64,000 bases of DNA from positions 1-64,000 of IMG/VR virus record IMGVR_UViG_2724679563_000003. One strand, given 5' to 3'. The stretch comes from an uncultured virus (IMG/VR IMGVR_UViG_2724679563_000003). Taxonomy: Duplodnaviria > Heunggongvirae > Uroviricota > Caudoviricetes. Within the stretch, counting starts at the first letter, position 1, and the number at the start of each line of letters is the position of its first letter. This document shows, one piece after another, positions 27,311 through 48,969 of this stretch. The translations under genes were made by a program, and so were the position numbers. Below the pieces are notes generated by a model, which was not told the DNA's origin, searched no databases, and worked only from the letters and a program-made list of their open reading frames with translations.

Positions 27311-27340
27311 TTATTAATAATAAAATAATTTAATAATATG

Positions 27341-27377: not shown

Positions 27378-27393
27378 AAGGAGTGATTTTTAA

Positions 27394-28516: not shown

Positions 28517-28606
28517 ATTTCCCCTATTTTTCTTTAAGTATATAGATGTTTTAAAATATCAATTTTATTAAAATTTAATTACAATGTATTTGTATGTTTA
28601 AAGAAA

Positions 28607-29061: not shown

Positions 29062-29087
29062 AAGTACAGTAAGTAGAGGTTGATTAT

Positions 29088-29450: not shown

Positions 29451-29484
29451 ACTCTTAACAAATAAAAGTTAGGAGTTTTTATTT
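29449..29484 (+). terminator. Intrinsic terminator
   Basis: aaactcttaac/gttaggagttt stem plus T-tract. Confidence 0.6.
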
Positions 29485-29622
29485 GTCTTTGCAAAATAAT
29501 ATTTGACAATTATAAAACATAAAGAACTTTTTCGAGGTTGGCAATATTATCAATTTGTTATAAAATATACATATATTAATAAAATTATATATGGAATTAT
29601 ATATATACTTGGAGGTATTACA

Positions 29623-29985: not shown

Positions 29986-30091
29986 CTTTATATATATTAA
30001 ATTCAAACCTCTAATTTTTATATGTTAGAGGTTTTTATATAAAAATAATATTTGAAAACATATATGTTATAATAGTTTCAGATAAAACTAT

Positions 30092-30313
30092 ATGGAGGTT
30101 TTTAAGCATATGACTGTAAAAAACAATCTAAAAGAAATATTGAAAGATAGAGGAATCAAACAAGTATGGTTAGCAGAACAAGTGGGAATTAATTCAAAAA
30201 CTCTTAGTAATATTATAAATGGTAAGTACAATACAAGTTTAGAAGTTGCTTTAAAAATATCAGAAGTTTTAGAGACAAGTACAGATGATATTTTTAAATT
30301 AATAAAAGAGTGA
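30092..30313 (+). CDS. XRE family HTH transcriptional regulator
   Basis: LKEIL..RGIKQ.WLAEQVGI...TLSNI.NG...SLE.A.KI. The start is probably ATG 30109-region/MTVK after the ggagg RBS. Confidence 0.85.
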   Translation: MEVFKHMTVKNNLKEILKDRGIKQVWLAEQVGINSKTLSNIINGKYNTSLEVALKISEVLETSTDDIFKLIKE

Positions 30314-30434
30314 CGGAAAAATATATTAATAAAAGTATTGACACACAAGATAAAGGGTAGTATTATAATATTTGCAAGGTAAAAACAACCAATTAATCCA
30401 AGCCTTGCAAATATTATAATAGGGAGTTGTCGAT

Positions 30435-30803
30435 ATGTTAAATAAAACAAATGCTATTAATAATATAGAGTGGAAACAAGAAATAATCAATAATACTAAG
30501 AATTATCAAAAAGAAAACGAAGAAATAATTCAGAGGTTAGTTGAAAAACTAAAATCAATTAATCTATTGGGTACATACATAGAAAAAGAAAATATTGCAT
30601 TAGCTATGGAAAATTTCACAGTAGAGGAAAATGACTATAATATCTTCATAACAGGACAAGCTTGCATTAACGCAGATGACGGAGAAGATTATATGGATAA
30701 TTGTGTATTAGGAATTTCTAAATCAGGCTTGCTTAGTTGGAATGATGATTTGGGAGATATTGAATTGGAATATGTAGATAACATAATTGTGTTAGAAGTG
30801 TAA
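30435..30803 (+). CDS. Hypothetical protein
   Basis: 122 aa, RBS agggag. Upstream TTGACA at 30339 suggests a sigma-A promoter. Confidence 0.65.
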   Translation: MLNKTNAINNIEWKQEIINNTKNYQKENEEIIQRLVEKLKSINLLGTYIEKENIALAMENFTVEENDYNIFITGQACINADDGEDYMDNCVLGISKSGLLSWNDDLGDIELEYVDNIIVLEV

Positions 30804-30839
30804 TATTGTTAACAATAGTAATTGTAAAAGGATTATATT

Positions 30840-31055
30840 ATGGAACAAAAGGAAGGAGAAAGAGTTAGGATGATAACATTAAATGCTATAAGAGAGAAAA
30901 ATAAAAATGAACACTCCTTTTTAAATACAAAAATAACTAAGAACACTCTTTCTCAAGAAGAATATGCAGAAGGAAGAGAAGTATTTTTAAGATTCGTAAA
31001 ATTAATAAATGAAAAATCTTTATATGATTATTTTAAAGAATATGAAGATATATAA
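30840..31055 (+). CDS. Small hypothetical protein
   Basis: ORF. RBS aaggag at about 30853 suggests a start at 30870. Confidence 0.55.
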   Translation: MEQKEGERVRMITLNAIREKNKNEHSFLNTKITKNTLSQEEYAEGREVFLRFVKLINEKSLYDYFKEYEDI

Positions 31056-31071
31056 TAAAGGGGATAAGATC

Positions 31072-31233
31072 ATGACAAAAATTAATAGAAGTAATAATAT
31101 ATTTGAATTTACAGTATCCAAAGATGATTTCAATAGTATAGTTAAAAAGTTAGAAAAACCAGGACTAACTAAAGAATACTTAGATGAATGTAAAAGAGTT
31201 GCTAATTTATATAAAAAACCATCTAAAAAATAA
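31072..31233 (+). CDS. Small antitoxin-like protein (53 aa)
   Basis: RBS aagggg. MTKINR...FTVSKDDFNSIVKKLEKP... Confidence 0.5.
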   Translation: MTKINRSNNIFEFTVSKDDFNSIVKKLEKPGLTKEYLDECKRVANLYKKPSKK

Positions 31234-31257
31234 TTTCAAAAGTATAGGAGAAAAATT

Positions 31258-31413
31258 ATGAATGTCAAAAGGTGGAATGATAATAAAAATAAGCTTAAAG
31301 AAAAAAAGACATCACAAAACTATACAGTGGCAAATACTAAAGATGTAATTTTATCAATCAAAAAGTGTAATAGAAAATATGCTAAAGCGTTAAAGAAGTT
31401 AGCTGATTCGTAA
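31258..31413 (+). CDS. Small antitoxin-like protein (51 aa, not in the track)
   Basis: RBS aggag. MNVKRW... leader shared with the two antitoxins. Ends KYAKALKKLADS. Confidence 0.55.
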   Translation: MNVKRWNDNKNKLKEKKTSQNYTVANTKDVILSIKKCNRKYAKALKKLADS

Positions 31414-31420
31414 AAGTGGA

Positions 31421-31768
31421 GTGATAGTTATGGGTAAAGTTATTAATATTTTTGATTATAAAAAAGAAACCTTAACAAAGGAAGAAATAATGGAAGCAAA
31501 AGCAGATTTACTATATGATGATGATGGATACTTAGATATGTTTTTTGAGGAAGAGTATAATGATAAAATAGAAATTGAGGATATAGATGTAGAAGCAAAA
31601 TTAGCTAGAAGTAAGGAACTTTTAAAATCTTATTCTTTACTAGATATGATTCTTGATTCAAAAAAGAGAAAAGAAGTCTATGATTATTATGATAGAAATT
31701 ATGAATCTACTCCAGAAGAAGACAAGATATTTAACGAAATGAGAGGAAAATATAAAGAAGAAGATTAA
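31421..31768 (+). CDS. Acidic hypothetical protein
   Basis: 115-aa ORF. Probable start ATG 31430. Confidence 0.6.
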   Translation: MIVMGKVINIFDYKKETLTKEEIMEAKADLLYDDDGYLDMFFEEEYNDKIEIEDIDVEAKLARSKELLKSYSLLDMILDSKKRKEVYDYYDRNYESTPEEDKIFNEMRGKYKEED

Positions 31769-31793
31769 ATAAGATTATTAGGAGGAGTTTATT

Positions 31794-31955
31794 ATTAAAA
31801 AAATAATTAAAAAACCTAATAGTATATTAAAGTCTATAGAAATAAGTTTTCAAGAAATACAGGATTTTAATAAAGGTAAGAAAAAATTAAAATCATTAAA
31901 AGAATCTCAACAATTATGGGATAAATGGGCAGAAGAATCAGAAAAAGAGGTGTAA
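31794..31955 (+). CDS. Antitoxin-like ORF with ATT start or mutated start codon
   Basis: Strong RBS aggaggag at 31780-31787. Open frame ...SILKSIEISFQEI..FNKGKKKLKSLKE... resembles the 28843 antitoxin. Confidence 0.45.
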   Translation: MKKIIKKPNSILKSIEISFQEIQDFNKGKKKLKSLKESQQLWDKWAEESEKEV

Positions 31956-31958
31956 TCT

Positions 31959-32213
31959 ATGAGTGACAGATTATCTGAATTACAAAAAGAACTAGATAAT
32001 AATCTATATAAAGCTACTATAATTGCTAAAAAAAATACTAAAAGAAATGAAATGGGGCAAGTTATAATTTCAGAAGATGAAGAAGAAAAGTGTGAATGGG
32101 ACATTATTGCAGATATATTCACTAATGCTATAAGAAGAAAAGGATTAAATTCAAAGCAGGTTGAAGATATCTCAAAAAAAATTTTAGATGAGGTAAGAAA
32201 TAAATGCGAGTAG
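31959..32213 (+). CDS. Antitoxin-like hypothetical protein
   Basis: 84 aa. Its end overlaps an ORF starting MRVVVDT, a PIN-toxin-like start. Confidence 0.55.
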   Translation: MSDRLSELQKELDNNLYKATIIAKKNTKRNEMGQVIISEDEEEKCEWDIIADIFTNAIRRKGLNSKQVEDISKKILDEVRNKCE

Positions 32214-32332
32214 TTGTAGACACAATAAAGTTAACTCCATCAGATACACTAGATAAAGATGAGAAAAGTGATTGCTTTGCAGATTGGTATGAAGAAGAAC
32301 TTATTGAAAAGTATAGAAAATATAATAGATAA
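32204..32332 (+). pseudogene. Truncated PIN-toxin-like remnant (42 aa)
   Basis: MRVVVDT matches the PIN-domain N-terminal xxVDTN strand. The rest is unrelated and far too short for a PIN domain. Confidence 0.4.
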
Positions 32333-32393
32333 ACTAAAGATATATAACTTATAAAGGCTTTATTATAAATATTTTGTTGGGGGTATAAGTGTT

Positions 32394-32549
32394 ATGAAAA
32401 GGTCTTTGAATTTAAACAAACTAGCAATAAAAAATATAACTACCATATCATCAAAAGAGGCATTAAAAGATGTTGTACCTTTTAAATGGAGTGAAGAAGT
32501 ATTAAATGGTACTAAAAAAATCAAAGTTATGAGCTTTTTGTTTCGCTAA
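32394..32549 (+). CDS. Small hypothetical protein (51 aa, not in the track)
   Basis: RBS ggggg. MKRSLNL...ISSKEALKDVVPFKWSEEVLNG... Confidence 0.5.
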   Translation: MKRSLNLNKLAIKNITTISSKEALKDVVPFKWSEEVLNGTKKIKVMSFLFR

Positions 32550-32786
32550 AATTTTCAATAAAACTTTGTACTTTAATATATAATTCATAACTTTTAATAA
32601 CCATCTTGTCTATATTTTTGGTACGAATTACCATCAATGTTATACCAATTTATGGTAATATATAAATATGCTAATTATTTAATATATATAAACGAAATAG
32701 ATTATAAGCATATTTATTAAATATTATATTTTTCTTAAAGAATATTTTGTAAAATATTGATATTTTGTACTGGGAGTGGTAAAATT

Positions 32787-33020
32787 ATGAATATAAAGAG
32801 ATGGACAGGCTGTGAGAAGCCAAGGGTGTATACAGCTAAAATAGTTAAAAATAAGGGGGAAGGACATATGGCAGTATCTAAAGCATATTTATCTTGTTTA
32901 GATAAAGAAGCTACTCAATTATTTAAAAAAGACATAGAATCTGCTAATTTAAAACCAACTGTAGCAAAAAAAGGATTAGAATTATTTAAAAAACTAACTT
33001 GTGACGAAAGAGATAGCTAA
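32787..33020 (+). CDS. Putative antitoxin of the GNAT toxin
   Basis: Small ORF overlapping the GNAT start. Shares the MNI.RW.G leader with 28843. Alternative start at 32868. Confidence 0.55.
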   Translation: MNIKRWTGCEKPRVYTAKIVKNKGEGHMAVSKAYLSCLDKEATQLFKKDIESANLKPTVAKKGLELFKKLTCDERDS

Positions 33021-33570
33021 TATGAATTTTTGTGAAGAAAAACTAGATGAGGATAAACACTTTAAAGAAATTAGTGATTTTGTATGTGGTGAAAATGAAT
33101 CATTAGAAATATTTTTAAAATGTCATGCAATAAAATATCATAATAGCTCTCAAGGTATGACTTATATAATAAAAATGGATAATAAAGTTATTGCTTTTTA
33201 TACATTAAAATGTAATGCTGTTCAGGTTGAAGATACTAATGGTAAAGAGTGTATACCTATGGTTGAATTAGCTAGACTTGCAGTAGATTCAGAGTATCAA
33301 TGTAAAGGCTATGGTACAGTAATATTTCTTGGATACATGTTACCTAAAATTTTGCACGTAAGGGATTTAGTAGCAGCAAAAGCCATTATGGTGTTTGTTG
33401 AAAAAGAAGATAAAAACGCTATTAATTTCTACAAAAAAGTAGGTTTTAAGATGGCTGATGAAAAAGTTCAAAATCATATAGAAGAATGGTATTCAGAGGG
33501 CTGTAGCATTATGGTGTTGAATTTAGATACAGCCGAAGAAATATTAAGGCAAATACAAGAAGGAAATTGA
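33001..33570 (+). CDS. GNAT acetyltransferase (AtaT/TacT-like toxin)
   Basis: DF.CG..SL..FL, FYTL, IP.VELARLAVD..YQ.KG.G, A..FY.K.GF. Confidence 0.8.
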   Translation: MTKEIANMNFCEEKLDEDKHFKEISDFVCGENESLEIFLKCHAIKYHNSSQGMTYIIKMDNKVIAFYTLKCNAVQVEDTNGKECIPMVELARLAVDSEYQCKGYGTVIFLGYMLPKILHVRDLVAAKAIMVFVEKEDKNAINFYKKVGFKMADEKVQNHIEEWYSEGCSIMVLNLDTAEEILRQIQEGN

Positions 33571-33610
33571 GAACTCTTAAATATTAAATTATTTAAGAGT
33601 TCTTTTATTT
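33571..33610 (+). terminator. Intrinsic terminator
   Basis: gaactcttaaata/tatttaagagttc stem plus ttttattt. Confidence 0.7.
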
Positions 33611-33734
33611 GCATAAAATTAATTAACTAAAGGCATTTTCATAATGTCTTTTTATTTTTGCTTAATATATCTACATAAAAAATATTATGTAAAGGTAATT
33701 AAAGTAAACAAAATATGAAAGGAGGAATTTTTTA

Positions 33735-35207
33735 ATGGGTCTAGGCATACATACTTCGTTTACTTTCGAAAGTTTTGATTCGTTAAATGCAAAAGCTCAA
33801 AACTTATTAAAGAAAGTGGGAGAAAATAGTAAAATAAAATTAGATTTTTCAGACGGAATGTCTTTAGATAAAATGCAACAAGAAGTAAACAAGCTACAAC
33901 AGGAAATTATTAAAGCTAGTAAACAGTCTAGTCAAACATTTATAAAGACTTTTGATGATGTAAATAAACAATTTGAACAACAAATAGATAAAATAAAAAA
34001 TAATTTGAAAAGTATAGGGTCTAATGTAAATGTTAATTCTATAAAAGATGATTATGGAAAGATAATAGGTGCTTTAGCTCAGTATGAAGATAAAGCTGGA
34101 AATGTTATAACTAAAAATTATGAGATTGGGAAATCACTTAATGAAATAAATGAAAAAGGCAAATACATAGAAAAATTAAAACTAAAATTAGTAGATGACA
34201 GTGATTTAAAAAATCAAAATAAAGCATTGAGTTTTTTAGATGAAGAAAAGAAGAAAATTGAGCAATTAAATAAAACAACTGCAAAAGTAAAATTTGATAC
34301 AGATGGTAATGGCAATATTCAAAAAGCTACTATTACATATACTGATGGAATGAATCGTGCTGTTGCAGAAACATATAAGTTGAAAACAGCAACACGAGAT
34401 TTAGAAAATGTAATAAAAAGAACTATGAGTTTTGAAAAGACAGGAACTACTTATAGTGATAATATAGCAAAAAGTTTAAGAACTTTAGATCAATATCAAA
34501 AGGCTATAGATAAATTAAATGAAAAGAATATAAATTTGGGTGGTGGTCAACAAAGTCAACAATTTGTTAGTAATCTTAAAGACGCTCAAACAATAATTGA
34601 TAAAACTAAAGCTTCAGGGGAATCTATGACCAAAAGTTTAAAAACCAATCTTGATATTTTAATTAACAAGATGAATTTAGAAAATAAAACAATTAAAGAA
34701 AATAACACTGAAATGAAGAAAAAAGAAAAAATAATGAAAGAAGCTCCTATAGCCATACAAGGGTATGAAAATAAAATAAATAAATTAAAAAAAACATATA
34801 AAGATTTAATTAAAGAAGCTGACTTGAAAAAATTAAGAGAAGAAATGGCTAAATTAGCACGTTCAAAAGAACCTGAAGAATACGCTAGACAATTGAAAGT
34901 TATAAAAAATGAATTTGATAAATTAGAGAGCTCTGTAAACAGTGGTGGTAAAAAGGGAAATGGAGGTATATTAGCTTCTATTGGTGAGGCAATGACAAAG
35001 TTTCCCATTTGGATAGGAGCTACTACAGCTTGGATGGAAGCTATCCACAAAGTCAAAGATGGTATTGGGTTTATATCTAATTTAGATAAGGCTCAAACTA
35101 ATATTGCTATGATAGCTGATATGAATAAAAAAGAAGTTGCTGATTTAACAGGGGAATATAGTAAATTGGCTGGTCAATTACATACTACTACATTAGAAAT
35201 GATGGGT
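33735..35207 (+). CDS. Tape measure protein, exon 1 of 4 (joined CDS 33735-43841, about 2410 aa)
   Basis: Coiled-coil protein ending LAGQLHTTTLEMMG. Joins in frame to GAEEFLRAG after intron removal. Confidence 0.85.
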
Positions 35208-35544
35208 GGACAAAGCACACTGCCCATGTAAAACCTCGTGAACCTAGAAATCTAGGGTGTCTATTCAACGTTAAGGTCAAATGGGAAATAATTTGTTAAT
35301 GAATAGGCTAACAGGGGAAGAGAAATCTAATCCTGTGCGAAATTATATTTATTTTTAAATATATAATCGTTAAACGACTATCGAAACCATAACATAAATG
35401 TAATTAGGGTTGTTTATGTGAATAAGGAAGTAGAGTGAATTAACACTGTTAGTACATCCATAGCGAAATTCTGTGGGTGGAAGTGCGAGGACTTAACCTA
35501 ATAAGCATGATATAGTCTATTGATTAATTTATAAATAATTAATG
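35208..35544 (+). ncRNA. Group I intron 1 (337 nt, no ORF) in the tape measure gene
   Basis: P1 atgggt/gcccat with U.G at the splice site, P3 cctcgt/gcgagg, P7 gactat 35376/atagtc 35512, terminal G 35544. Removal restores the frame. Confidence 0.88.
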
Positions 35545-36153
35545 GGTGCAGAAGAGTTTCTTAGAGCTGGTAGAAGCATAGAAGAGACAAAAGGATTGTT
35601 GGCGGCTTCAACTATAGGTGGAGCGATATCTGGTCAAACTACTGAAGCGGTTTCGGAACAATTAATTGCTATAACAAATGGTTTTAGTAACATGACTGAA
35701 CAAGCACAGAAAGATGGTAAAAGTTATGAAGAAGTTGTGATGCACGTTATTGACACTATTTCAACATTGGATAATGCTTCTGCTACTTCATTCCAAGAAG
35801 TTGCAAGCTCTATGATGAGAACAGCATCTTCAGCACAAATGGCAGGAGTAAGCTTTGAGACATTGGCATCTTATGTGGCTACAGTTTCGGCAACAACAAG
35901 AAAATCTGCGGAATCTATAGGAGAAAGCTTTAAAACAATTTTCGCAAGATTCCAAGACATTAAACAAAATATCAACGTTGATGATGGTGTAACTATATCT
36001 AATGTGGAAAAGTCATTGGATAAAGTAGGAGTTGCACTAAGAAAAGATAAGTATCATTTTAAAGAATTCTCACAAGTTGTTGAGGAGTTAAAGCCAAAGT
36101 GGAAAGAATTCAATGACTTACAAAAATCAGATATAGCTAAAAGTTTAGCAGGT
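35545..36153 (+). CDS. Tape measure protein, exon 2 (TP901-type TMP core)
   Basis: SAESIGESFKTIFAR motif. 203 codons, in frame at both ends. Confidence 0.85.
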
Positions 36154-36524
36154 AAAATGTGTGCCTGAGTATGCAGTAATGTATATTTAAAAATGCTTAA
36201 ATTGACGGGGAAGTCCTTAGAGTTTTATATACCAAGTTATTATGGAAACATATATAATGGCTAAGTATAACGGCTTAGGTATGGTAAAAAATATAAAAAT
36301 TGGGCAACCAAACGCAGCCAAGCATCTAAGTATAATTTAATTATATATGATGAAGGTTCAACGATTATAATAGCAATAGGAACTGTTTTTATAAATAAGC
36401 CTATAAGGTATAATCTGAACATCTATGGAAAACATAGAGAAGATATTTTAACGAATATCTCGCCATAACAAAATAATTTGTTGTGGTCAGTAGCTTATAT
36501 TTTATAAGTGAAAGTAACAGCTTG
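36154..36524 (+). ncRNA. Group I intron 2 (371 nt, no ORF) in the tape measure gene
   Basis: P1 caggt/gcctg with U.G, P7 gattat 36363/ataatc 36410, terminal G 36524. Splicing gives LAG|THQRENFLVLM. Confidence 0.85.
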
Positions 36525-39500
36525 ACTCACCAAAGGGAAAATTTCTTAGTGCTGATGGATAATTTAGAACAAGTGAATAAACTTCAAAAAGAGGTAAATA
36601 AGGCAGCAGGAAATTCAAAAAGAAAATATAATGAAGATTATGCTGAATCTGTTGAAGCGAAAGTTAAGAACCTTAAACATGCTTGGGAAGAGCTATATCA
36701 ATCTTTAATTTCTAGCGATGCCTTAAAAATAATTCTTCAAACAGGAACAAAATTGGTAGGAGTATTAGATGCCTTAATTCATTCAAGCAGAGGAACAAAA
36801 GTAAGTTTACTAGTGTTATTACCAACAATTATATTAATAGGTAAACATTTTAAGTATATGATAGATATCATAAAATCAGGTAAAGATTTAAAATTTATAG
36901 ATGTTCTTTGGGGAAGTTTGTTTGGTAAAATGACTAGTGGAGTAGGGGTTGTTGAATCTCTTAAAGGTGCTTTTAAATCTCTTTTTGGAACTATAAGTTC
37001 TTTTAATGCTTTAATAACATCTCCAACAGGATTAATGTTTGCAGGTATTGCAGTTACTATAGGTGTAGCAACTGCTGCAATAGTTAAACATATAAAACAT
37101 CAGAAAGATTTAAGAGAAGAAAATAAAAAATTAAAGAAAAGCTATGAAGATTTGACTAAAGCAATGAGAGAGAATAACAAGGAAGAAATAAAAAACGCAA
37201 TAGAAGACCCTCAAAAAGCTCAAGATGAATTGCAAGCTTTAATGAAAAGAAGAGATGAATTAAAAAAGGCAATGAAAAATACTCCTCATATGACAGGTAT
37301 GAGTGGAGAAAATAATGCTGATTTAAAAGAAACCGAAATTCGAATTCAAGAATTACAAAAATCAATTAAAAGTAGTAATTTAACACTAAATGAAACAACT
37401 GGTAAAATAATCGACATAGCAAAAGCAAAAAATCAAATTGTCAATTCAGATGTAGCAGATGCAATAAAAGAAACTGCTGAATATGAATTAAAAGAGAAAG
37501 ATTATATCGCTGGGCTATATGATGAATATAATAGATTAAGTTCAATTAAAAATAAAAGTAAAACCGAAGAAAAGGAATTAAGTAACGTTTCTGAAAAGTT
37601 AAATGATAATGTAAAAGGTTTAATTTTGACAAAAGATAAAGAAGGTAATGTAATAATTGAAAATACAGGTTTGTTAAATGATGAAGTAAAAATGCTTAAA
37701 ACCGAAGGAATGACTGTTGAAGAACTTACTAAGGCAAAATTAGAAGCAGCAAAAGAACACGCTCAAATACAAAGAGGAATGACTAAGATATCATATGAAG
37801 AAGCTAGGAAAAGAATACTTTTTCTACATGAGGAAATGAGAAAGAGAGAGCCATTAGCAGATGCTATTGATAAAGTTCTTCCATCTGCAAAGATTACAGG
37901 AATGAATCCTGTTCGAAGACAAATAGATATGTTGAAAGATGAAAGTGTGGAGTTAGAAGAACAAATGGCGAGACTAGATAGCATTTTTAAACAACCGAGT
38001 TCAATGAATATTAGTGAAACTCCAGACTTTAATCCTGTAGATCCAGAAAAGGAAAAGAAAAGTACAGATGCGTTAAAAGAAAATACGGGTGAAATTGACA
38101 AAAATCGTGAAGCTGTTAATAAAGCTAAAGAAGCTGTAAAACAATATGAGTTAGCTTTGAAATCATTAGAGTTACAAATGACTAAAAATGATATAAGTTT
38201 GGGAAGATTGTATAAGAATAGTGATGCATATAGAAAAAAATTAGACGAGAAGGCAAATTTAATTAAACAAGAAATAGCCTTAAACAAACAACAAATAGCT
38301 ACTAATAAAGAATTAGCTGGTTCACTTGGGGCTGTTAGTAGTGCATATACTAGTGGTATGAGTAGTAGTATTGGAGAACAAGTTGTAAAAAATGCACAAC
38401 AGTATCTAGGAAGACCTTATAAGTGGGGTGGTAGTACACCTAGTGAAAACTTTGACTGTTCTGGATTGGTTCAATATGTATATAAGCAAGTAGGAGTTTC
38501 TTTGAACAGAACGACATATGACCAAGTAAAACAAGGTACTCCTGTTTCAAAAAATCAATTGCAAGTAGGAGATGCTGTATTTTTTGGTAGTCCATCAGCA
38601 CCTCATCATGTAGGCATTTATATGGGGAATGGACAATATATACATGCTCCAAAAACAGGTGATGTTATAAAAGTTTCTAGTTTAAATAGTAGAAGTGATT
38701 ATGCAACTGCTAGAAGATATGTAAGTGGAAGTGGTGGGTACAATAGAGTCTCAGCATCTAATTATACTGGTGAGTATTCCAATTATATTAATGAAGCTGC
38801 TGCAAAATATGGCGTTTCTGCTGCTTTAATTGCAGCTGTAATAAAAGCCGAGTCAAATTTTAATCCTAATGATGTAAGTGGTTCAGGAGCAATCGGTCTA
38901 ATGCAACTTATGCCTGCAACAGCTAGAGAATTAGGTGTTGGAAACCCATATGATCCAAAACAAAATATTATGGGTGGCACAAGGGAATTAGCTAATTTAA
39001 TAAAAAAATATAATGGTAATTTAGATTTAGTATTAGCTGGATATAATGCAGGGGTAGGAGCTGTAGAAAAATTTGGAGGAGTTCCTCCTTATAAGGAGAC
39101 AAAAGACTATATTCCTAAAGTTAAAAAGTACATGAAAGGGTTTGGTGGATCGGAATCATCAATCCATTCAGTAATAGACGAGCAAATGGATTTAATTGGC
39201 AAATCAATGGATATGGAAAAGAAAAATGCTGAACTAATGGAAAATTTAAATAAAATAAATATTGAAAAATTAGAATCACGTTTAGGAGAATTTGATGACA
39301 AAGTTAAATCTATTGATAGGACAATTACTCAATTAAGAACAGATGTCGATTTGCAAAATAAAAATGATATTAATTATATTAACTATTTATCTAAGATAGA
39401 TGATTATACTGTTAAAAAGTTAGATACTTTAAGAAAAGAAAGAGAATTTATTGAAAAAGAAATGAAATCAGGCATTTATGATGAAACTACTATTCATATG

Positions 39501-40997
39501 TTAAGCGAAAAATATTCAGACATAGGGACAGAAATGCTTAATGTAACTAAAACTATCAAAGATGTGAGTTTAGAATTAGTCACTGCTAAATGGGAAGCCA
39601 TCCAGCAGATTTATAAAGAAAATATAGAAATGATTTCAAATGAACTAGATAGACTTAGTTTACATGAAGAAAAAAATATCAAGCAAATAATGATATTAAA
39701 GAAGCAACTAGTAGAACAAGACGAAGAAAATATTAGAAGAATGACTGAGTTAATTCGAGAAACTAATGATATAGCATATAAATATGGCAAAGATTTCTTG
39801 TTAGATAAAGTTAGAGAGTATACTGCTGAATTAGATAAAGCTAATACTGAACTAGAAAAGCATAAAAAAGAGCTAGAAGATATCAAAGACAAAATGTCTG
39901 AAATGAAGTCCACTATAGAAGATAAACTAAGAGAAGTCTTAACTAAAACTGCTGAATTAGCGAAAGAACAATTAGATAAAGTTTTAAAACATTTCGAGGA
40001 ATCTATAGATGCTGAGTTAAAGAAAATAGATGATGCAGAAAAACGAAATAGTTATAATGAACAGAAAAGCGAGCAGTTAAAAACTATAGCGGAATTACAA
40101 GAAAAGATAGCCAAATTATCAACAGATGATAGCGAAGAAGGCATAGCTAGAAGGCTAGAGTACGAAAAACAATTACAAGAGGAAATGAAGAAAAAGACTG
40201 ATCTACAGATGAAGCACAATAATGAATTAAAGAAAGAAGCCCTAACAAAACAGAAAGAAGAAAAGAAAAAAGAAATAGAAAAGAAAAAACGTGATATCGA
40301 CACAAGATTAGATAATGTTTATCTAAATTTAGATGCAAGAAAAGCACTAACTGAAGGCTATATTGAATGGATTGATGGTAAGAGAATTGGAATCCAAAAT
40401 GCTCTATTACAATTTGAGGATTTATTTGGAAAAGGGTTAACTTCACTAGGAGACAAAATAAAAAAGGAATTATTAGAACAATTAAAAGCAGCACAAGACT
40501 TAGTAAATGGAATAGATAAAAAAGACCCTGATAAAATACTTGAAGAAAATAAAACTAAAAATGTATATGGGACAGGGGCGGATTTAGCCAATGCTCGAAA
40601 GATATTAGGTTCTTTAGGATATAACTATATAGATACAAGCCTTGTAGACAAAAACAAATTACATTTTGGGAAAGATGATATAGTTGTAGGAGATACTGGT
40701 GCTATTAATGGTGTTGACAGACAAGATTTAAATGGTGCTATAAGACTAGGTGGGAAAAATAGATATGATACGGCAGGAATCATACAATTATATTCAGATA
40801 TTCAAAGTGGAAGAATTAAGCCTGTTGGCGGAATTGTATATGGTACAGGACAAGATTTAAAAAATGCTATAGCATGGCTTAGTCCTTTAGGATATGAATT
40901 TGTAGATACATCAAAAATAAATTCTAAAGATATTAATTTTAATCCAAATGATATTATTGTAGGTGGCAAAGGTGCAAAAGGTGGAGTAAACTTTGAT
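36525..40997 (+). CDS. Tape measure protein, exon 3 (NlpC/P60, lytic transglycosylase SLT and CWB2-like repeats)
   Basis: FDCSGLVQY...HVGIY, and IKAESNFNP...GAIGLMQLMP.TA...AGYNAG. Ends at the TTGAT target. Confidence 0.88.
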
Positions 40998-41480
40998 TGA
41001 CTTGCCAACGCATACTCGTGACTTCAGCCATGAGTTAGTTGGCAAACAGTTAGCATATAGAGAAATCTGTATGTAGTGGTATTAGTCACAATACCCAACA
41101 CTACTTGAATTGCTGGGAAGCCCTAAAGCTAATTAAACTACAACATAAGAATGAAATAAGTCTAAGTGTGAAAGTTACGAAAGTAGAAAAAATTAATTGG
41201 ATAGTGCAAGGTTAAATCCTAAACACTAAAACAATGGGCAATCAGCAGGTAAGCCTCGAACAGAGGAAACTTCAACGACTATTCCTCTTGAGGGAAGTAG
41301 GTACAAGCGTACCGAAGTGGGTAGACCCTAACATGTAATGATGAGGGATAAGATATAGTCTGTGCGTCATACGAAAGTATGAGAAGTTCATAAGAGAACT
41401 GCATAGGTAGTAGCGAACCTATGTGAACGATACCTCAAACATGATTAAAGAACCTACGGTTCTTATATATATTATTTAAA

Positions 41481-41681
41481 TTATTTAGGTATGAATTCAA
41501 TAACATTTTCAATGTTACAATTAAGATACACACAAATATTTTCAAGTGTTTCCATGGAAATATATTCATTTTTAGACATTTTTGCTAATGTAGCTGTGCT
41601 GAAACCAACTGCTTCACGAAGTTGAGTTTTGGACATATCTCTTTCTAATAATAATCTAAATAATGGTTTATAACTAATCAT
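41481..41681 (-). CDS. XRE/Cro-like HTH protein inside the IS605-type IStron
   Basis: MISYKPL..LL.ER.MSKT.L...VGFS.ATLAK...E.I....LE.IC..L.C.IE.VIE. RBS aaggag on the minus strand. Confidence 0.85.
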   Translation of the reverse strand: MISYKPLFRLLLERDMSKTQLREAVGFSTATLAKMSKNEYISMETLENICVYLNCNIENVIEFIPK

Positions 41682-41763
41682 TTAAATCACTCCTTTTATT
41701 TAGATTGTATCATATATATTTTATAAGTCAATATATAATATTTATAAACCTAAACAAAATATG

Positions 41764-41792
41764 TTGACATTAAATTTAGAATATGATATATT
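41764..41792 (+). promoter_or_regulatory. Sigma-A promoter for tnpB, with a divergent promoter for the HTH gene at about 41704-41731
   Basis: TTGACA-17-TATATT with extended TG. Minus strand TTGACT-16-TACAAT. Confidence 0.6.
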
Positions 41793-41837
41793 ATATTTAG
41801 AAAAGCAAATATAAGTCTTAAAATGAGGTGTTAATAA

Positions 41838-43031
41838 ATGACTTCTACAAATATTGAAAAGAATACAATAGCAAAAGGATTTAAATATAGAATTTATCCC
41901 AATAAAACTCAAATAAATCAAATAGAATTGAGTTTTAATGCTAAAAGATATGTTTGGAATTATTTTTTAAATATTAATAAACATAGATTAAAACATCATA
42001 AATCAGTATTAAATTTTGCTAAAATGTCAAGATTATTAACACTACTTAAAAAGAAAAATATATGGCTTAAACAATGTGAAAAATCTGTATTGCAAAATAC
42101 TCTAAAAAATCAATATGAAACATTTTTAAAATTCTTTAAGAAAGAATGTGGTTTTCCTAAGTTTAAATCATATAAAAGTAATTATCAATCTATTAAAATC
42201 AATTATACAAATAATAATATAGAAGTATTAGAAAAAGAAATAAAATACACATCTACAGGTAAATATAAGAAGCAAAATTGTAAAATTAAATTACCTAAAT
42301 TAAAACAAGTAAAAATAGCTTATTCAAGACAATATCAAGGTAGAATAGTTAGTTCTACTTTATCAAGAGATACAGATGGTAAATATTATATTAGTTTGTG
42401 TTGTGTAGATGTACCACAAGAAAATAAAGAGAAAACAGGTTTAGTAGTTGGAATAGATTTAGGAATAAAAGAGTTTGCAACTACAAGTGATAATAAAGTT
42501 ATTTCTAATCCTAAATATTATAGAAGATATGAAGATAAATTAATAAAAGCTCAAAGAAAACTTAGTAAACGTAAAAAAGGTAGCAATAATAGAAATAAAC
42601 AAAGATTAAAAGTAAACAAATATCATAAAAAAATTTATAATTGTAGAATAGATTTTCTTCAAAAATTAACTACAGATTTTATTAATAACTATGATATTAT
42701 TTGCATGGAAGATTTGAATACAAGTGGAATATTACAAAATCATAAGTTAGCTAAAAGTATAGCAGATGCAAGTTTCTTTGAGTTTAATAGAGAATTAGAA
42801 TATAAAACAAAATGGTACGGTAAAATATATCAACAAATAGATAGATTTTATCCATCTAGTCAATTATGTAGCGATTGTGGCAATCAATCACAACAAACTA
42901 AAGACTTAGGAGTAAGGGCATATATCTGTGAGAAATGTGGTTTAGTAATAGATAGAGATTATAATGCTAGTATTAATATTTTAAATGAAGGTTTAAGAAT
43001 AATTAATAATAAAAAAGTAGTAAGTATGTAA
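41838..43031 (+). CDS. tnpB: TnpB RNA-guided endonuclease (IS605 type)
   Basis: KYRIYP N-terminus. RuvC GIDLG / MEDLN / DRDYNA intact. Zn finger CSDC..CEKC. Confidence 0.93.
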   Translation: MTSTNIEKNTIAKGFKYRIYPNKTQINQIELSFNAKRYVWNYFLNINKHRLKHHKSVLNFAKMSRLLTLLKKKNIWLKQCEKSVLQNTLKNQYETFLKFFKKECGFPKFKSYKSNYQSIKINYTNNNIEVLEKEIKYTSTGKYKKQNCKIKLPKLKQVKIAYSRQYQGRIVSSTLSRDTDGKYYISLCCVDVPQENKEKTGLVVGIDLGIKEFATTSDNKVISNPKYYRRYEDKLIKAQRKLSKRKKGSNNRNKQRLKVNKYHKKIYNCRIDFLQKLTTDFINNYDIICMEDLNTSGILQNHKLAKSIADASFFEFNRELEYKTKWYGKIYQQIDRFYPSSQLCSDCGNQSQQTKDLGVRAYICEKCGLVIDRDYNASINILNEGLRIINNKKVVSM

Positions 43032-43183
43032 GTGTGTAAATAAGATATAAGAATAAAAATAATATATATAAGAACCGTAGGAACTATGGGGATAGCTTGG
43101 TGATACTTAACACATTAGTGTTATTGACCAAGAACTCCGTGACTTTAGTCATGGGAGGTTCAGGTAGACGGTGTTACTAGATT
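43032..43183 (+). ncRNA. Predicted omegaRNA (reRNA) scaffold plus guide of the IS605-type TnpB
   Basis: Structured region between tnpB and the right end. The guide would be the flanking exon, gtagacggtgttactag. The 5' boundary is uncertain. Confidence 0.6.
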
Positions 43184-43841
43184 AGGTGGAAATGATAGAA
43201 ATGATACATATAATCAAATAAGAAATAAAGCATTAATCGATTTAAATGCTATGAATAAAGCTAATTATGTTCCTAAGTCTAAATATGGAAAAGTATATGG
43301 AACTGGTTATGATTTGAAAGCAGCTAAGAAATATCTAACTAAATTAGGTTATCAATTTGTAGATACTAATTCTGTTAGGGATGTTCAATTAACAGCGAAT
43401 GACATTGTTGTTGGTGGCACTATGGATGGTAAGGAGCAAATTTATAATAGTCAAGCGAGATGGTTATTTGGTAAAGATAGATATCAGACTGAGAGTGAGA
43501 TAGCTAATTATGCAAATACCATGAGCGATATTAAAGGTTATTATGATAAAGGTGGAGTTGCAGATTTTACAGGAAAAGCTATGCTTCATGGGAATCCTAA
43601 TGCAGTAGAGACTATATTTAACGCAGAACAAGGTAAGAAATTATATAATTTTGTTAATACCTTACCTATAAATAATTTTGGGTATGGAATGAATAGAAAT
43701 CTACAACCCGCAATGGCAACTAGTAACAATAATAATATTGAAATAAATTTTCATATTGATAAAATGTATGGAACAGAAAATGAAGCTCAAGGTTTTGCTA
43801 CTAAAATAATAAATACTCTTAGAAATAGAGGAAAGTATTAA
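43164..43841 (+). CDS. Tape measure protein, exon 4
   Basis: In frame with track ORF 43251. CWB2-like repeat and a Y.KGG.ADFTG.AMLHG...E TMP C-terminal motif. Confidence 0.85.
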   Translation, partial: VDGVTRLGGNDRNDTYNQIRNKALIDLNAMNKANYVPKSKYGKVYGTGYDLKAAKKYLTKLGYQFVDTNSVRDVQLTANDIVVGGTMDGKEQIYNSQARWLFGKDRYQTESEIANYANTMSDIKGYYDKGGVADFTGKAMLHGNPNAVETIFNAEQGKKLYNFVNTLPINNFGYGMNRNLQPAMATSNNNNIEINFHIDKMYGTENEAQGFATKIINTLRNRGKY

Positions 43842-43873
43842 GGATACAATTTTAATTGTATCCTTTTCTTTTT
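43841..43873 (+). terminator. Intrinsic terminator
   Basis: aggatacaatt/aattgtatcct stem plus T-tract. Confidence 0.65.
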
Positions 43874-43891
43874 AAAGAGAGGTGATGGTTT

Positions 43892-46120
43892 TTGATAAAG
43901 AGCAGTTTATATTTCAATTATGCAGGTAGAGATAGTTTAGAATTTAATATTATAAATGGTTCTGTAGATAATGCAGAATTAAAAGAAAATTTTTTAGCTA
44001 ATAAGAAAATAAAAGAAATAAATACTATAGAGGCTGATAAGCCTTATTTTCAAGGAATAGAAAGAAATCCATTACAACTTAAATTACAATTTTGTTTCAC
44101 AGAAAAATGGAATAAAGAATTAATTAGAGAAGTGGCTAGATGGTTACATCAAGATAATTATCAGCCATTATATTTTTCTGAAGACCCTGAAAAGATTTAT
44201 TATGCTATGCCTGTTGATGATGTTGAAATGACACATTTTGGGCTAGAACAAGGATATTTAGACATAACTATGAGATGTAATACTTATCATGCCTATAGTA
44301 GAGAATATTTGAGTGAAACGTATGATTTAAGTGAAAACAATGAGGATGGAACAGAAATAATAATACCAAATTATGGGGATATAGATATAAAACCAGATAT
44401 TTGGATTAAAAAAATAAGTGATGGTAGCTTAGAAATAACAAATAGAAGTAATAGTGGAGAAGTTACAAGTTTTTGTAATGGCTCTAGTGGTAAAGGTATA
44501 TTAAAATTTACAGGAACAGTATTTGATAGCGAAATCGTAACGATAGGTGATAAGATATTTGAATTCGATACAGGTGATGGAATTGTAAATGAAAATGTTA
44601 AACAATGGACGCAAGGATTTAAATATATAGATGGAACAATAGTTAATAAAAGTGGGATTTTATACCAATGTATTAAAACAAATGAAGATGAAGAATGGAA
44701 TAAAAGTCATTGGAAAAAGCTAGATAAAAGTAATATAAAAGTGGATGTAAGTGCAGATGCTAACCCTGCACAAGCGAAATTAGTTTTTAATAACACACCC
44801 ATTGAAGATAGTGATAATATTTCCATTGGTAATAACACCTATGAATTCGATTTCGATGATGTATACGAAGCAAAAAATGGACATATTCCAATATCTTTAA
44901 AAAACTATACCACACAAGCTAATGGAAGATTAATAGCTAGAAGTAATTTGGATTTTGCAGGAAGTAAAATTAAAGTAGGAGATAGGGAATATGAAATAAC
45001 TGCATCTTCAAATGAAGGAGTTGCAATTACGAAGAATACTGGGCTAAAAGGTTGGACAAATTGGAGATTAGATGCTTATTTTGAATCCGATTCTGATTTT
45101 AAAGATGCAACCTTATTAATAAATGAAAAAAGAGACAACACACTTGATGGAGTAAGGATACCTTTAGTAAGTGATTTCGTTAATAATAGAATAGATAAAG
45201 AAAAGCAGATTATTGAGCTGTTCAAATTAACAAAATTTTTAGGAATCCCTGCTGAAAGATATGCTGATACAGGAAAGTTCCAACCTGTTTCACAAGGAAT
45301 CAAAGGACAAGATATAGGTGATGAATTAAGCATCTATAAAAGAACTGGAAGAAGTTTTAAAATAGATATGATAAATTCTACATCCAATAAGTTTTATATT
45401 AATAAAATGTTTCAAAGAAATGGTGTTACAGATAAAAATATGGAAGCAAAAATTGGGGATATTATATTAATTACTAAATGGCAAGAGAATAGAAAGAATG
45501 ATTCTTTTGTTGAATATGAAGGTAAAGATTATATACAATCTGACTTTGAACTATTAAGAATAAAAAATGTAGGTGAAACTAAAAACAATAGTTTAATTTT
45601 AACTCACGAAAGTGGAACTTATTGGTATGAATTAGAAACTCCTAGTAAAATATTTAAAACCAACCCTCTCTATTCTTATGGTGAAGGGAAAAGAGTTGTA
45701 GGAAGTGGATATGACTTAGCAAATGCAAAGATTGTTTTAAATGGATTAGGTTTTTCTTTTGTGGATTCAAAGGGTTTATCAGAAGAAAATTTAAGAAAAA
45801 TTGTTAGAAATGGAGATATTATTTTAGGGGAGAAAGGTGCTAAAGGCGGAATTCCATTTGATATTGATGGTGCAATTAGATTAGGTGGAAGTGATAGATA
45901 TGAAACTGCAAAATTGGTAAGAGATTATTATTGGGAAATCCATGATAAATATTATGCTAAAGGATATGATTATTATTATAATGTTATTTTATTTACAAAA
46001 CAAGGAGAAAAATTATTGATTCAGGAGGATATTCCACTAACAAAACCTTATCAAATTAGGATGGGAAGTAGCTTAGATGAAACATGTGAAAACATAGTAA
46101 AAGCTATAAATGAAGAAGGT
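43892..46120 (+). CDS. Distal tail (Dit-like) protein with inserted domains, exon 1 (joined about 1019 aa)
   Basis: F.YAGRDS.EF.I, WL.QD.Y.PL.F.EDP.K.YY and N.GD...KP Dit-like motifs. Follows the TMP gene. Confidence 0.75.
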
Positions 46121-46602
46121 AACTAACTGTTAAACAAAACTTATAAAAAGTTATAAATAGGTGTTGACTTTTATAACTTTAGAGAGATGAATAACAGAGC
46201 CTCGTATGTAGAGAAATCTGCATAGGACACGACCTTAAAACCAGTAATCCCTAAAGCCTTTACACTACAATAAGATATGAAATAAGGTCTTATGAATGTG
46301 GGAAACTATCAACAACGTAAAGGATGGCATATGGTGAAACCCTAAGTGCTAATACAATGGGTGTTTGGTCGCCAAGTTCCGAACAGGAAAAGGTCAAACG
46401 ACTAGAGAGCAATCTCGTACACTGCAAGTCAATAATGGTAGTGGAAATGGGTCGCCCTTAACTCTTGAATAAAGCAAGAAAAGGTGAAGAAATAGTCTAC
46501 GCACGTTGGGAAACCAAGTGGTCATTATCGTGAGAAAAATGACATCTATAAAGTAGCGTTTATAGGTAAATATCATAAAACTTATATAAATAAGAGTAGA
46601 AT

Positions 46603-46764
46603 TTAATCTACTCCATATTCTTTAAGAACTAATTCAATGGCTTTATCTAATAATTTAGACATAGGAATTGAAGTTTCTTTTGATAAAACTTTAAGTTTTT
46701 CAAATAATTTAGCATTAACTGCATTGCTTATTGCAGTACGATTTTTAAGACCTCTATTATTCAT
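46603..46764 (-). CDS. Ribbon-helix-helix protein (53 aa, not in the track) inside the IS607-type IStron
   Basis: MNNRGLKNRTAISNAVNAKLFEKLKVLSKETSIPMSKLLDKAIELVLKEYGVD. RBS gaggtg on the minus strand. Confidence 0.8.
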   Translation of the reverse strand: MNNRGLKNRTAISNAVNAKLFEKLKVLSKETSIPMSKLLDKAIELVLKEYGVD

Positions 46765-46800
46765 AAAAATCACCTCAAAATTATTATAATATATTTAAAA

Positions 46801-46844
46801 ACTACTTGCAACTACTTGCAACTACTTGTAGTTTGTGATATAAT
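46801..46844 (+). promoter_or_regulatory. Three 10-bp direct repeats (ACTACTTGYA) overlapping the tnpB promoter
   Basis: Repeats at 46801, 46811 and 46821. TTGCAA(46816)-17-TATAAT(46839) with extended TG. Confidence 0.65.
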
Positions 46845-46873
46845 AAAAATATAGAGAGTGAGATGAAAAACAT

Positions 46874-47986
46874 ATGGAAAAAGGTTTTAAAATTCAAATA
46901 TTTCCTAACAAAGAACAACAAATATTAATGTTTAAAAGTTTTGGATGTGCAAGATTCGCATATAATTGGGCATTAGCAAAGGAAAAAGAAAACTATAAAA
47001 ATGGTGGTAAATTTATTCCAGATAAACAATTAAGAAAAGAATTTACTCAATTAAAAAAGCAAAATGAATATAAGTGGCTAAATGAGATAAGTTGTAATGT
47101 AACTAAACAAGCCATAAAAGATTGTTGCAAAGCCTATAAAAACTTTTTTAAAGGTATAAATAAATATCCAAAATTTAAATCTAAGAAAAAATCTAAATTT
47201 AGTTTTTATAATGATACTTTTAAAATTAAATTTACTGATAAGAAAGTTATGCTTGAAACAATAGGTTGGATGAATATAGCTGAAAGAAATAAAATACCAA
47301 CAAATTGCAAATATTTAAATCCGAGAATATCATTTGATGGAATTAGATTTTGGTTATCTATAGGTTGTGTTGTAGAAGATGTGGCTGATATGTTACCTAA
47401 AACAGAACCTATAGGAATAGATATGGGAATAAAAACATTAATGGTATGTTCTAATAAGATGGAATTTAAAAGAGTTAATACTAAAAAAGAAAGAAAAAAA
47501 CTTAAAAGACTTCAAAAGAAAGCTAGTAGATTATATGAAAAGATGTTGAAAACCAAAATTTCTAAGTCAAGTAATCTACTAAAGCTTGAAAAAATGATTT
47601 TAAAACAACACCAAAAAATATCAAATATAAGAATAAATAATATACATCAAGCTACAAGCAAATTAATTAAATTAAATCCTAGTCATATAGTTGTTGAGGA
47701 TTTAAATATAAAGGGAATGATGAAAAATAAATATTTATCAGAAAAAATAGTAGATTGTTCATTCCATGAAATACGTAGACAATTAGAGTATAAATGTAAA
47801 TGGAATAATATAAAGTTAATTGTAGCTAATAAATGGTATGCTTCATCAAAAATTTGTAGCAATTGTGGTAATAAAAAAGACAAACTTTCATTAAGTGAAA
47901 GAATTTATACTTGCGAGTGTTGTGGAAAAATTATAGATAGAGATTTTAATGCTAGTCTAAATCTTAGAAATTTAGCTTATAACTAA
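46874..47986 (+). CDS. tnpB: TnpB RNA-guided endonuclease (IS607-associated)
   Basis: FGCARFAYNW. RuvC GIDMG / VEDLN / DRDFNA intact. CSNC..CECC. Confidence 0.93.
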   Translation: MEKGFKIQIFPNKEQQILMFKSFGCARFAYNWALAKEKENYKNGGKFIPDKQLRKEFTQLKKQNEYKWLNEISCNVTKQAIKDCCKAYKNFFKGINKYPKFKSKKKSKFSFYNDTFKIKFTDKKVMLETIGWMNIAERNKIPTNCKYLNPRISFDGIRFWLSIGCVVEDVADMLPKTEPIGIDMGIKTLMVCSNKMEFKRVNTKKERKKLKRLQKKASRLYEKMLKTKISKSSNLLKLEKMILKQHQKISNIRINNIHQATSKLIKLNPSHIVVEDLNIKGMMKNKYLSEKIVDCSFHEIRRQLEYKCKWNNIKLIVANKWYASSKICSNCGNKKDKLSLSERIYTCECCGKIIDRDFNASLNLRNLAYN

Positions 47987-48138
47987 ACTACAAGCTAAAT
48001 ATGTAGTGATACGTTAGTCACGAATTAAAGCCTTCGGAGAACTATACAAACTAAAGTAGTAGTATTTTATATTATGAAATAGAGTTCATTGAATTAGGAA
48101 ATAGAATTTATAACTTTTTATAAGTTTTATGTAACGGT

Positions 48139-48969
48139 AGAGACTGGGTCGAATATTCCAAAGGCACATATGAACATGATGATGTAAGAGCTGAATATGA
48201 TAAAAGTTCAAAGATTATAAATATAAAAGCAAAAGAAAGAGGTAGTAAAGGAAATAAAATATCTTCAGTAGTAAATGATTGGGAAAACACTCAAAAATTA
48301 TTAAGACAAAATTATAAAATAAACCAATTTGAATTTCCCAATTTGGTGAAAGGTAAGGATGCTATTTATAGTGAGCTAGATGACACAAATGGAAAATCAT
48401 TAATAGCATATATAACAGATGTGTTAAAGACAAATGAAGATAAAATGAATATTAGCTTTTCTAATAATACTATAAATATAATTTCTAAAAAATATGGAAG
48501 CATTAACAATATAATTCCTATATTGTCTAACTGTTATTCTTGTAATTTCTATGATATTAAAGACAACCCTGCTGTAACTTTAGAAGGAGGAAAAGACCCA
48601 AGTATAAATACTATTTTACAAGCTTTATATTCTACTATAGACAATGTATTTTGTAAGATGGATTTAGAGAATCAAACAATTACAGTGACTCATAAAGAAA
48701 TAGGTAAAAAAACTAATATTAATATAAGTACAACTGCTATAAATGCTTATTGGGATAATGGCAAGAAATTATATGGTGGTAGAGATGGACTAGTTAATGA
48801 TGAAGAAATATACATAGAAGGTGAAAGTGGACATATTGAAAGTAATAAAAACAAAGGAATTGTAGATGTATATAATGGTAATGATTTAGTTTTAAAATAT
48901 GGTGAAAATAGACTATTAATTAAGGGAAATTGTTTTATAAGATTTAAAACTAAATATAAATTCTTATAG
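48139..48969 (+). CDS. Distal tail protein, exon 2
   Basis: Open frame from 48139 continuous with track ORF 48343. Ends L.L.YGEN.L.I.G....F, a Dit-like C-terminus. Confidence 0.75.
   Translation, partial: RDWVEYSKGTYEHDDVRAEYDKSSKIINIKAKERGSKGNKISSVVNDWENTQKLLRQNYKINQFEFPNLVKGKDAIYSELDDTNGKSLIAYITDVLKTNEDKMNISFSNNTINIISKKYGSINNIIPILSNCYSCNFYDIKDNPAVTLEGGKDPSINTILQALYSTIDNVFCKMDLENQTITVTHKEIGKKTNINISTTAINAYWDNGKKLYGGRDGLVNDEEIYIEGESGHIESNKNKGIVDVYNGNDLVLKYGENRLLIKGNCFIRFKTKYKFL

Follow-up and report, generated by a model that had tools for sequence, protein, structure and literature searches.

A tape measure gene predicted to need three group I splicing events, beside a Dit gene predicted to need one, in a virus related to Clostridium botulinum plasmids

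Described systems and the locus compared with them

The closest described counterparts of the locus treated here are TMP-IVS1, TMP-IVS2, and TMP-IVS3, group I introns that Tourasse and Kolsto (2008, PMC2504315) described in tape measure genes of prophages of the Bacillus cereus group. In this work, a 64,000-nt stretch of an uncultured virus of the Caudoviricetes (the window; positions 1 to 64,000 of the 159-kb IMG/VR record IMGVR_UViG_2724679563_000003) was found to carry a tape measure gene interrupted by three inserts, followed by a Dit gene interrupted by a fourth. We hypothesize, with a probability of roughly 0.87, that the tape measure gene needs three group I splicing events and the adjoining Dit gene one. 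According to the passages of the Bacillus study on tape measure introns, the two cases are alike in that group I introns lie inside a prophage tape measure gene at several sites, most without a complete endonuclease gene, and in that their presence varies among related prophages. The Bacillus introns belong to subgroup IA, occur up to two per phage, and are in some cases on plasmid-borne prophages. The present locus differs in host genus and insertion sites, and in having three elements in the gene (including one IStron, the name for a group I intron joined to an insertion sequence (IS) cassette) and a fourth next door. The original prediction, an earlier reading of this DNA that proposed the split tape measure gene, has to be corrected in three respects, one being that tape measure group I introns at up to three sites had already been described in the same passages (PMC2504315).

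For IStrons, the parts of the 2014 survey concerned with their classification define group A by insertion 3' of TTGAT (or ATTAT/TTTAT), a TCAG end and no target duplication, and group B by a GG-ending site and a CGG end (PMC4227781); the TTGAT motif is also reported for C. difficile IStrons in passages of a later study (bioRxiv 10.1101/2023.11.20.567912). The same parts of the survey list only group B IStrons in C. botulinum and no species harbouring both groups (PMC4227781). The third tape measure insert resembles CdISt1 or CdiIStron of Clostridioides difficile, as described in passages of both sources, in its TTGAT target, its TCAG end, a P1 with a U.G flanked by pairs, a 5' ribozyme with a 3' tnpB, and the lack of a full TnpA. 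Unlike that element, it occurs in C. botulinum, its accessory gene is an antisense Cro/C1-type helix-turn-helix (HTH) gene, a long 33-nt inverted repeat (91%) surrounds its open reading frames (ORFs), and both of its known insertions are in a phage tape measure gene. The Dit element is like CboIStron or CbISt1-4 of C. botulinum and its phages c-st and D-1873, with insertion after GG, a CGG end, tnpB, a RAGATH-18 guide-RNA scaffold, and a ribbon-helix-helix (RHH) gene resembling one described for IStrons. It differs in lacking the serine TnpA, in its target (GAAGG vs a TGGG consensus), and in its position in a tail gene.

The two smaller tape measure inserts, introns 1 and 2, have core blocks 72–81% similar to those of classical phage group I introns (nrdD, SPbeta-like yonO, Twort-like lysin, SPO1-like DNA polymerase, AR9 RNA polymerase) and share covarying helices with them, whereas the host genes differ and the P1 guides here fit tape measure exons. 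Cluster J mycobacteriophages have group I introns in capsid and tail genes that are spliced during late expression, according to passages of PMC3706429; late structural genes are interrupted in both cases, but hosts and introns are unrelated, and there each gene has one intron. The literature passages on tape measure introns or IStrons examined here contained no IStron within a tape measure gene, the supplementary tables of the IStron paper lying outside this coverage. The split-gene arrangement is thus real but of an already known kind, tape measure group I introns and IStrons both being published and the two IStron families well studied. The novelty is modest: the host and the insertion sites are new, neighbouring tail genes hold three plus one elements, and a single replicon carries IStrons of both families in a species surveyed as group B only.

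Tape measure gene and its exon joins

The ORF listing of the window gives + strand ORFs starting at 33735, 35542, 36483, and 43251. When the three inserts (Table 1) were cut out by script, the remaining 7233 nt formed a single frame of 2410 codons (491+203+1491+225) with one terminal stop, as the original prediction had proposed; likewise, each 5' exon was found to end in T and each insert in G (omega G). Boundaries 1 and 2 can slide by 1–2 nt with the joined sequence unchanged, and boundary 3 is unique. The third-junction sequence reads ...RLGGNDRNDT, so that one residue of the peptide given earlier was wrong (NDRYDT, now NDRNDT). The product was identified as a tape measure protein by its PF10145 domain, its great length, and its place before Dit. 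A stop occurs in the upstream frame no more than 24 nt past the 5' junction of every insert. An intein, read-through, and frameshift were ruled out by these stops directly 3' of each 5' junction, and a group II intron by the lack of a reverse transcriptase together with the group I model matches.

Fifteen related loci (L007–L021), obtained in a viral-contig scan with exon 2, were compared by local tblastn using the joined product. Joins 1 and 2 are crossed gap-free in one frame in eight of them (L013–L020; 28–60% identical), with the qualification that L020 has its own insert between the two joins, which are hence crossed in separate frames there. In the homologues, a conserved Gly-x-x-Glu-Phe comes directly after join 1. 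At join 2, the closest uninterrupted homologue (L013), whose tape measure gene is a single ORF of 2387 aa, reads ...SLAG and then T(H/R)QRENF... The same three inserts are present at 99.8–100% identity in five loci (L007–L010 and L012). In L011, which is 94% related in exon 2, intron 1 is present at 94.5% identity and the exons differ by up to 27%; join 2 is occupied there by a different intron of 1293 nt (L011:10610-11902), whose ORF has a homing-endonuclease-associated repeat (PF18780, E 2.4e-12), and join 3 is unoccupied, the flanks aligning gap-free there at 91% identity over 80 aa. L021 gave no tblastn match to the joined tape measure product. Across join 3, alignments are also obtained with the Dit repeat and with two further repeats of the tape measure gene. 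The Dit match had been put forward with Dit as an uninterrupted control, and the match itself stands, the repeat being intact; Dit, however, is itself interrupted by an IStron.

Translation signals bear on an alternative that needs no splicing, in which each of the four pieces would be translated on its own and the products would assemble into a split tape measure protein. ORF finders and RefSeq do call four proteins with ATG or GTG starts (in the RefSeq entry of pRSJ19_2, the name of the first refers to a fatty acid synthase domain, while Dit is called as two proteins). Separate translation is extremely unlikely, because the Shine-Dalgarno sequence AGGAGG is located 8 nt 5' of the ATG at 33735, ahead of the first tape measure piece only, and none is visible upstream of the called starts of pieces 2–4 (35542, 36483/36555, and 43251). 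Moreover, these starts lie inside or past the intron ends, adding or dropping residues found in no homologue, the homologues are continuous at exactly these junctions, and the inserts have ribozyme structure. Under the spliced reading, the gene would be expressed from the single ribosome-binding site at 33735, and three splices would give a tape measure protein of 2410 residues, of which the four publicly annotated proteins would be pieces; Dit would likewise be corrected to 1019 residues, not 744.

A group I-like insert of ~1660 nt is located at residues 612/613 in L020 (L020:9250-10910) and has a Cys-rich 431-aa ORF with no Pfam match. Given the other group I-like inserts in L011 and L020, the tape measure gene family looks like an intron hot spot. 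Window positions 20000–40000 match two plasmids of Clostridium botulinum (205–215 kb), of which pRSJ19_2 is one, at 100% identity, and judged from this identity the replicon is a Clostridium botulinum phage-plasmid.

Table 1. Exons, inserts, and parts of inserts in the tape measure and Dit genes (window positions; arrow, 5' splice site)
Feature	Position	Strand	Remarks
Tape measure exon 1	33735..35207	+	491 codons; sole Shine-Dalgarno (AGGAGG) upstream
Intron 1, ORF-less group I intron (predicted)	35208..35544	+	337 nt; terminal G; RF00028 partial match
Tape measure exon 2	35545..36153	+	203 codons; PF10145 PhageMin_Tail
Intron 2, ORF-less group I intron (predicted)	36154..36524	+	371 nt; terminal G; RF00028 full model
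Tape measure exon 3	36525..40997	+	1491 codons; NlpC/P60 and SLT domains, cell-wall-binding-like repeats
IS605-type (group A) IStron	40998..43163	+	2166 nt; after TTGAT; ends TCAG
IStron P1, UGAU↓UG / CAGUUA, U.G at splice site	40994..41052	+	encloses left-end IS hairpin
IStron group I ribozyme core	41049..41383	+	RF00028 63.5 bits
Cro/C1-type HTH gene, 66 aa, antisense in IStron	41481..41681	-	PF13443, E 2.3e-17
tnpB, 397 aa, ISDra2-like	41838..43031	+	OrfB_IS605 and Cas12f-like TNB domains
Right-end hairpin (43135-43157), then GTTCAG with terminal G	43135..43163	+	resembles left-end hairpin
Tape measure exon 4	43164..43841	+	225 codons; first ~16-20 nt would be TnpB guide by analogy
Dit exon 1	43892..46119	+	
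IS607-type (group B) IStron	46120..48137	+	2018 nt; after GG; ends CGG
Ribozyme core of Dit IStron	46267-46520	+	weak RF00028 match, 24.9 bits
RHH gene, antisense in Dit IStron	46603-46773	-	PF12651, E 3.3e-17
tnpB of Dit IStron, 370 aa	46874-47986	+	
RAGATH-18 RNA in Dit IStron	48031-48100	+	59 bits
Dit exon 2	48138..48969	+	joined Dit 1019 codons

Ribozyme features of the inserts

The paired core motifs GAYUAU ... AUARUC, corresponding to P7, are present in each of the three tape measure inserts, as had been noted before. In minimum free energy folds of the 5' regions, P1 of all three has a U.G at the 5' splice site with pairs on either side, which confirms this pair for introns 1 and 2 and extends it to the third insert. 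The fold z-scores of these regions are modest for introns 1 and 2 (-1.3 and -1.5) and -5.3 for the IStron. With the Rfam group I model RF00028 (gathering score of 50 bits), searches of short stretches gave 63.5 bits for the IStron core (E 3e-15, above the gathering score), 32.5 bits for intron 2 with the full model (E 6e-6), and 20.6 bits for a partial match of intron 1 (P4–P7 part, E 0.022).

In intron 1, P1 pairs AUGGGU↓GG with CUGCCCAU, P7 is GACUAU/AUAGUC, and a 7-bp long-range helix, CCUCGUG/UGCGAGG, is in the P3 position. Similar blocks (72–81%) were found in 67 phage records, and each of the six loci that were compared is located between adjacent genes or the two halves of a split one. 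These include nrdD of Clostridium phage CS01 (with an HNH gene in place of P6), nrdD of Enterococcus phage EFP01, and yonO of Bacillus phage phi3T; in Perkons and CB473P1 the relatives are between unnamed genes. Compensatory changes preserve the long-range 7-bp helix, a 7-bp pre-P4 helix, a hairpin with a YGAAAYU loop, and P7 in five of the six loci, the 3' part of the sixth (CB473P1) being outside the compared stretch. For the P7 domain of this family (seven sequences), RNAalifold predicted 17 pairs, 11 of them with compensatory changes. In addition, the hairpin loop UUAGG (35405-35413) is complementary to the loop CCUAA of a short P8 hairpin (35490-35497), and its counterparts in phage CS01 co-vary to CAAGG/CCUUG, which suggests a loop-loop contact.

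Intron 2 has a P1 of CAGGU↓A/UGCCUG with the U.G at the splice site, a GUAA loop on P2, an extended P4–P6 domain, and a P7 of GAUUAU/AUAAUC. Similar blocks occur in 234 phage records. The four relatives examined are in the RNA polymerase beta gene of AR9, which is annotated as a six-piece join, and in that of Internexus, in the split lysin gene of a Twort-like Staphylococcus phage, and in the split DNA polymerase I gene of SIOphi. RNAalifold of this family (five sequences) gave 46 pairs in P4–P6, 25 with compensatory changes. A MAFFT alignment of whole introns was too poor in the middle and was not used. By these comparisons, introns 1 and 2 appear to be ORF-less group I introns sharing covarying helices with introns that split other phage genes. 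The split-gene interpretation of the original prediction is supported by the uninterrupted homologues, the covariance-model matches, the introns in split phage genes, and the compensatory changes.

Scans for further elements covered the 159-kb record. The strict motif AACGAYTA followed by ATARTC occurs four times, in the three tape measure inserts and at 46398. A looser chain of core motifs gave 26 matches vs 13–33 in 20 shuffles, i.e., no enrichment, and an nhmmer profile of the four cores found nothing further (best other match E 0.61). In a search with a covariance model built on the P7 domain of intron 1, the next-best scores were those of the two remaining tape measure inserts (25.2 and 17.3 bits); the Dit IStron was at 9.7 bits, within noise, and nothing elsewhere in the record exceeded 15.1 bits. 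The count of only four elements is therefore subject to the limited sensitivity of these scans.

Several results weigh against the splicing hypothesis. Rfam at gathering threshold over the whole window returned only a tRNA and RAGATH-18 and no group I intron, and even at E<=10 over 33000-44500 (11.5 kb) no group I match appeared; a whole-genome RNA family search gave two weak matches only and missed the 63.5-bit IStron core. The RF00028 matches came solely from short stretches searched with laxer filters, and introns 1 and 2 are under its gathering score. Furthermore, the helices of intron 1 do not all fit the standard P1–P9 order, the 5' strand of the P3-like helix being located upstream of the invariant hairpin and of another helix. 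No homing endonuclease gene is present in intron 1 or intron 2, neither a serine recombinase TnpA nor a Y1 transposase TnpA (PF01797) was found in the 159-kb record, and IStron splicing is reported to vary in efficiency and to be repressed by TnpB and its guide RNA (passages of bioRxiv 10.1101/2023.11.20.567912). Because of the absence of homing endonuclease genes from the two introns and of TnpA from the record, current mobility is doubtful.

The same absences, together with the classification of the record as a provirus of about 80% completeness and the public annotation of the pieces as separate genes, could also mean that the elements are real but dead, so that the inserts do not splice, the split tape measure and Dit genes are pseudogenes, and tails are no longer made. 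We consider this very unlikely. The four exons are still open and in register over 7.2 kb, and core motifs, P1 pairs, and terminal G are all intact. Five other records share the inserts at 99.8–100% identity, and a sixth, with exons that differ by up to 27%, has intron 1 at 94.5%. Exon joins, ribozyme-type sequence and structure, IS hallmarks, and presence/absence polymorphism among relatives were observed in this work, and it is likely that these RNAs are spliced in vivo.

IStrons of the tape measure and Dit genes

The original prediction had described three self-splicing elements in the tape measure gene, and their positions hold; the third, however, is not a plain intron, as it is an IStron with an IS605-type TnpB cassette. 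It is inserted 3' of TTGAT, ends in TCAG, has subterminal hairpins at both ends, and encodes an IS605-type TnpB, features that place it in group A. This TnpB, a predicted RNA-guided nuclease, matches that of ISDra2 (E 1e-73) and keeps three RuvC motifs (GIDLG, MEDLN, and DRDYNA); it is presumably active. A 33-nt inverted repeat (41453-41485 / 43049-43081, 91%), partly AU-rich, brackets the IStron genes. Over the 5' 473 nt, the element shares 81.6% identity with a copy from a Clostridioides phage, and the ribozyme stretch is 84% identical to a "Group I catalytic intron" annotation beside a transposase in C. botulinum phage D-1873. By analogy with described elements, the right end (43135-43163) is expected to be the 3' part of the TnpB guide-RNA scaffold, and the guide would be the first bases of exon 4, so that splicing would part the guide from its scaffold. 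As an additional observation, the 3' end (43069-43157) weakly matches the Rfam family Ref70, an Enterococcus small RNA (26 bits vs a gathering score of 115 bits); the family might itself be an IS605/IStron guide-RNA end.

Because no Y1 transposase is encoded in the record, the tape measure IStron copy appears to be non-autonomous, and published C. difficile copies are also without a full TnpA (passages of bioRxiv 10.1101/2023.11.20.567912). A 90.75%-identical copy in the L011 tape measure gene is inserted after another TTGAT, at residues 1652/1653, which would be a sign of IStron mobility. The empty join-3 site of L011 retains TTGAT with different bases following, and the empty counterpart of the L011 site in the window reads TAGAT. 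Of 72,556 plasmid records, only four hold a full-length copy, and in each of these the copy is within this tape measure gene, at join 3 in two records and at the L011-type site in the remaining two.

In Dit, the ORF 43892-46126 has its apparent stop at 46126, and the insert begins two codons earlier. The stretch 46120-48137 is absent from four of six related loci, in which Dit is continuous with 1019–1021 codons. Its GG-ending site, CGG end, tnpB, RAGATH-18-type RNA, and empty sites in relatives are those of a group B IStron; the RAGATH-18 family has been linked to IS607 TnpB guide RNAs (passages of PMC11061315). A third, IS605-like cassette without an intron is located outside the window (L040:10990-12920, - strand; about 93.8–95.7 kb in G000). 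It has end hairpins like those of the tape measure IStron, a right end of GGTTCAG, and a 524-aa ORF with no Pfam or PDB match, which the ESM Atlas places beside TnpB-family clusters (score 0.98–0.99).

Since both the tape measure and Dit genes are split by intron or IStron inserts, intact tail proteins would need RNA splicing. We hypothesize that the tape measure gene was invaded by three selfish elements that excise themselves from the mRNA by means of a group I ribozyme. Small introns without genes would make up two of these, and in the third a group I intron would be joined to a non-autonomous cassette of the IS605 type, comprising a TnpB nuclease, its guide RNA, and an HTH gene. In the neighbouring Dit transcript, a fourth splice would remove the IS607-type IStron. 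Such a tail module, with four ribozyme-dependent elements and with IStrons of the IS605 and IS607 types together on a single replicon, would be a natural case in which the published conflict of splicing vs TnpB guide-RNA formation falls on essential late phage genes, and the relatives, which differ in the elements carried, provide ready comparisons of filled vs empty sites.

Splicing could in addition be a control point, as the original prediction had suggested for virion production, an addition to the hypothesis above and not an exclusive rival of it, if IStron splicing were lowered by TnpB and its guide RNA, or else by the HTH and RHH proteins, and the supply of tape measure and Dit proteins and the virion output were set in this way. 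Splicing of a related IStron is repressed by TnpB and the guide-RNA fold (passages of bioRxiv 10.1101/2023.11.20.567912), both IStrons retain an apparently intact tnpB and a small DNA-binding gene, and two adjacent essential tail genes are affected. Such control is nevertheless unlikely, as nothing in the sequence points to regulation, the Dit IStron is absent in four of six loci, and the join-3 IStron is absent in L011. Because there are relatives without the Dit or the join-3 IStron, virions, if made at all, would be made without these elements. An extended version is, taken as a whole, slightly less probable still. In it, tail assembly would depend on splicing vs guide-RNA formation in the two IStrons, and TnpB bound at the 3' end of an unspliced tape measure or Dit transcript would keep the exon-borne guide attached, that mRNA being lost for translation. 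The IStron nuclease and its HTH and RHH partners would then tune virion production of the phage-plasmid, and late transcription would supply guide RNAs that defend the insertion sites during co-infection by IStron-free relatives.

Around the tape measure gene, terminator-like hairpins with a T run are located at 43843-43875, just past its stop and ahead of Dit, and at 33570-33600, just past a GNAT acetyltransferase gene (33001-33570) and ahead of the tape measure start. This GNAT gene is directly upstream of the tape measure gene, and in phage D-1873 a GNAT gene is likewise directly upstream of an IStron.

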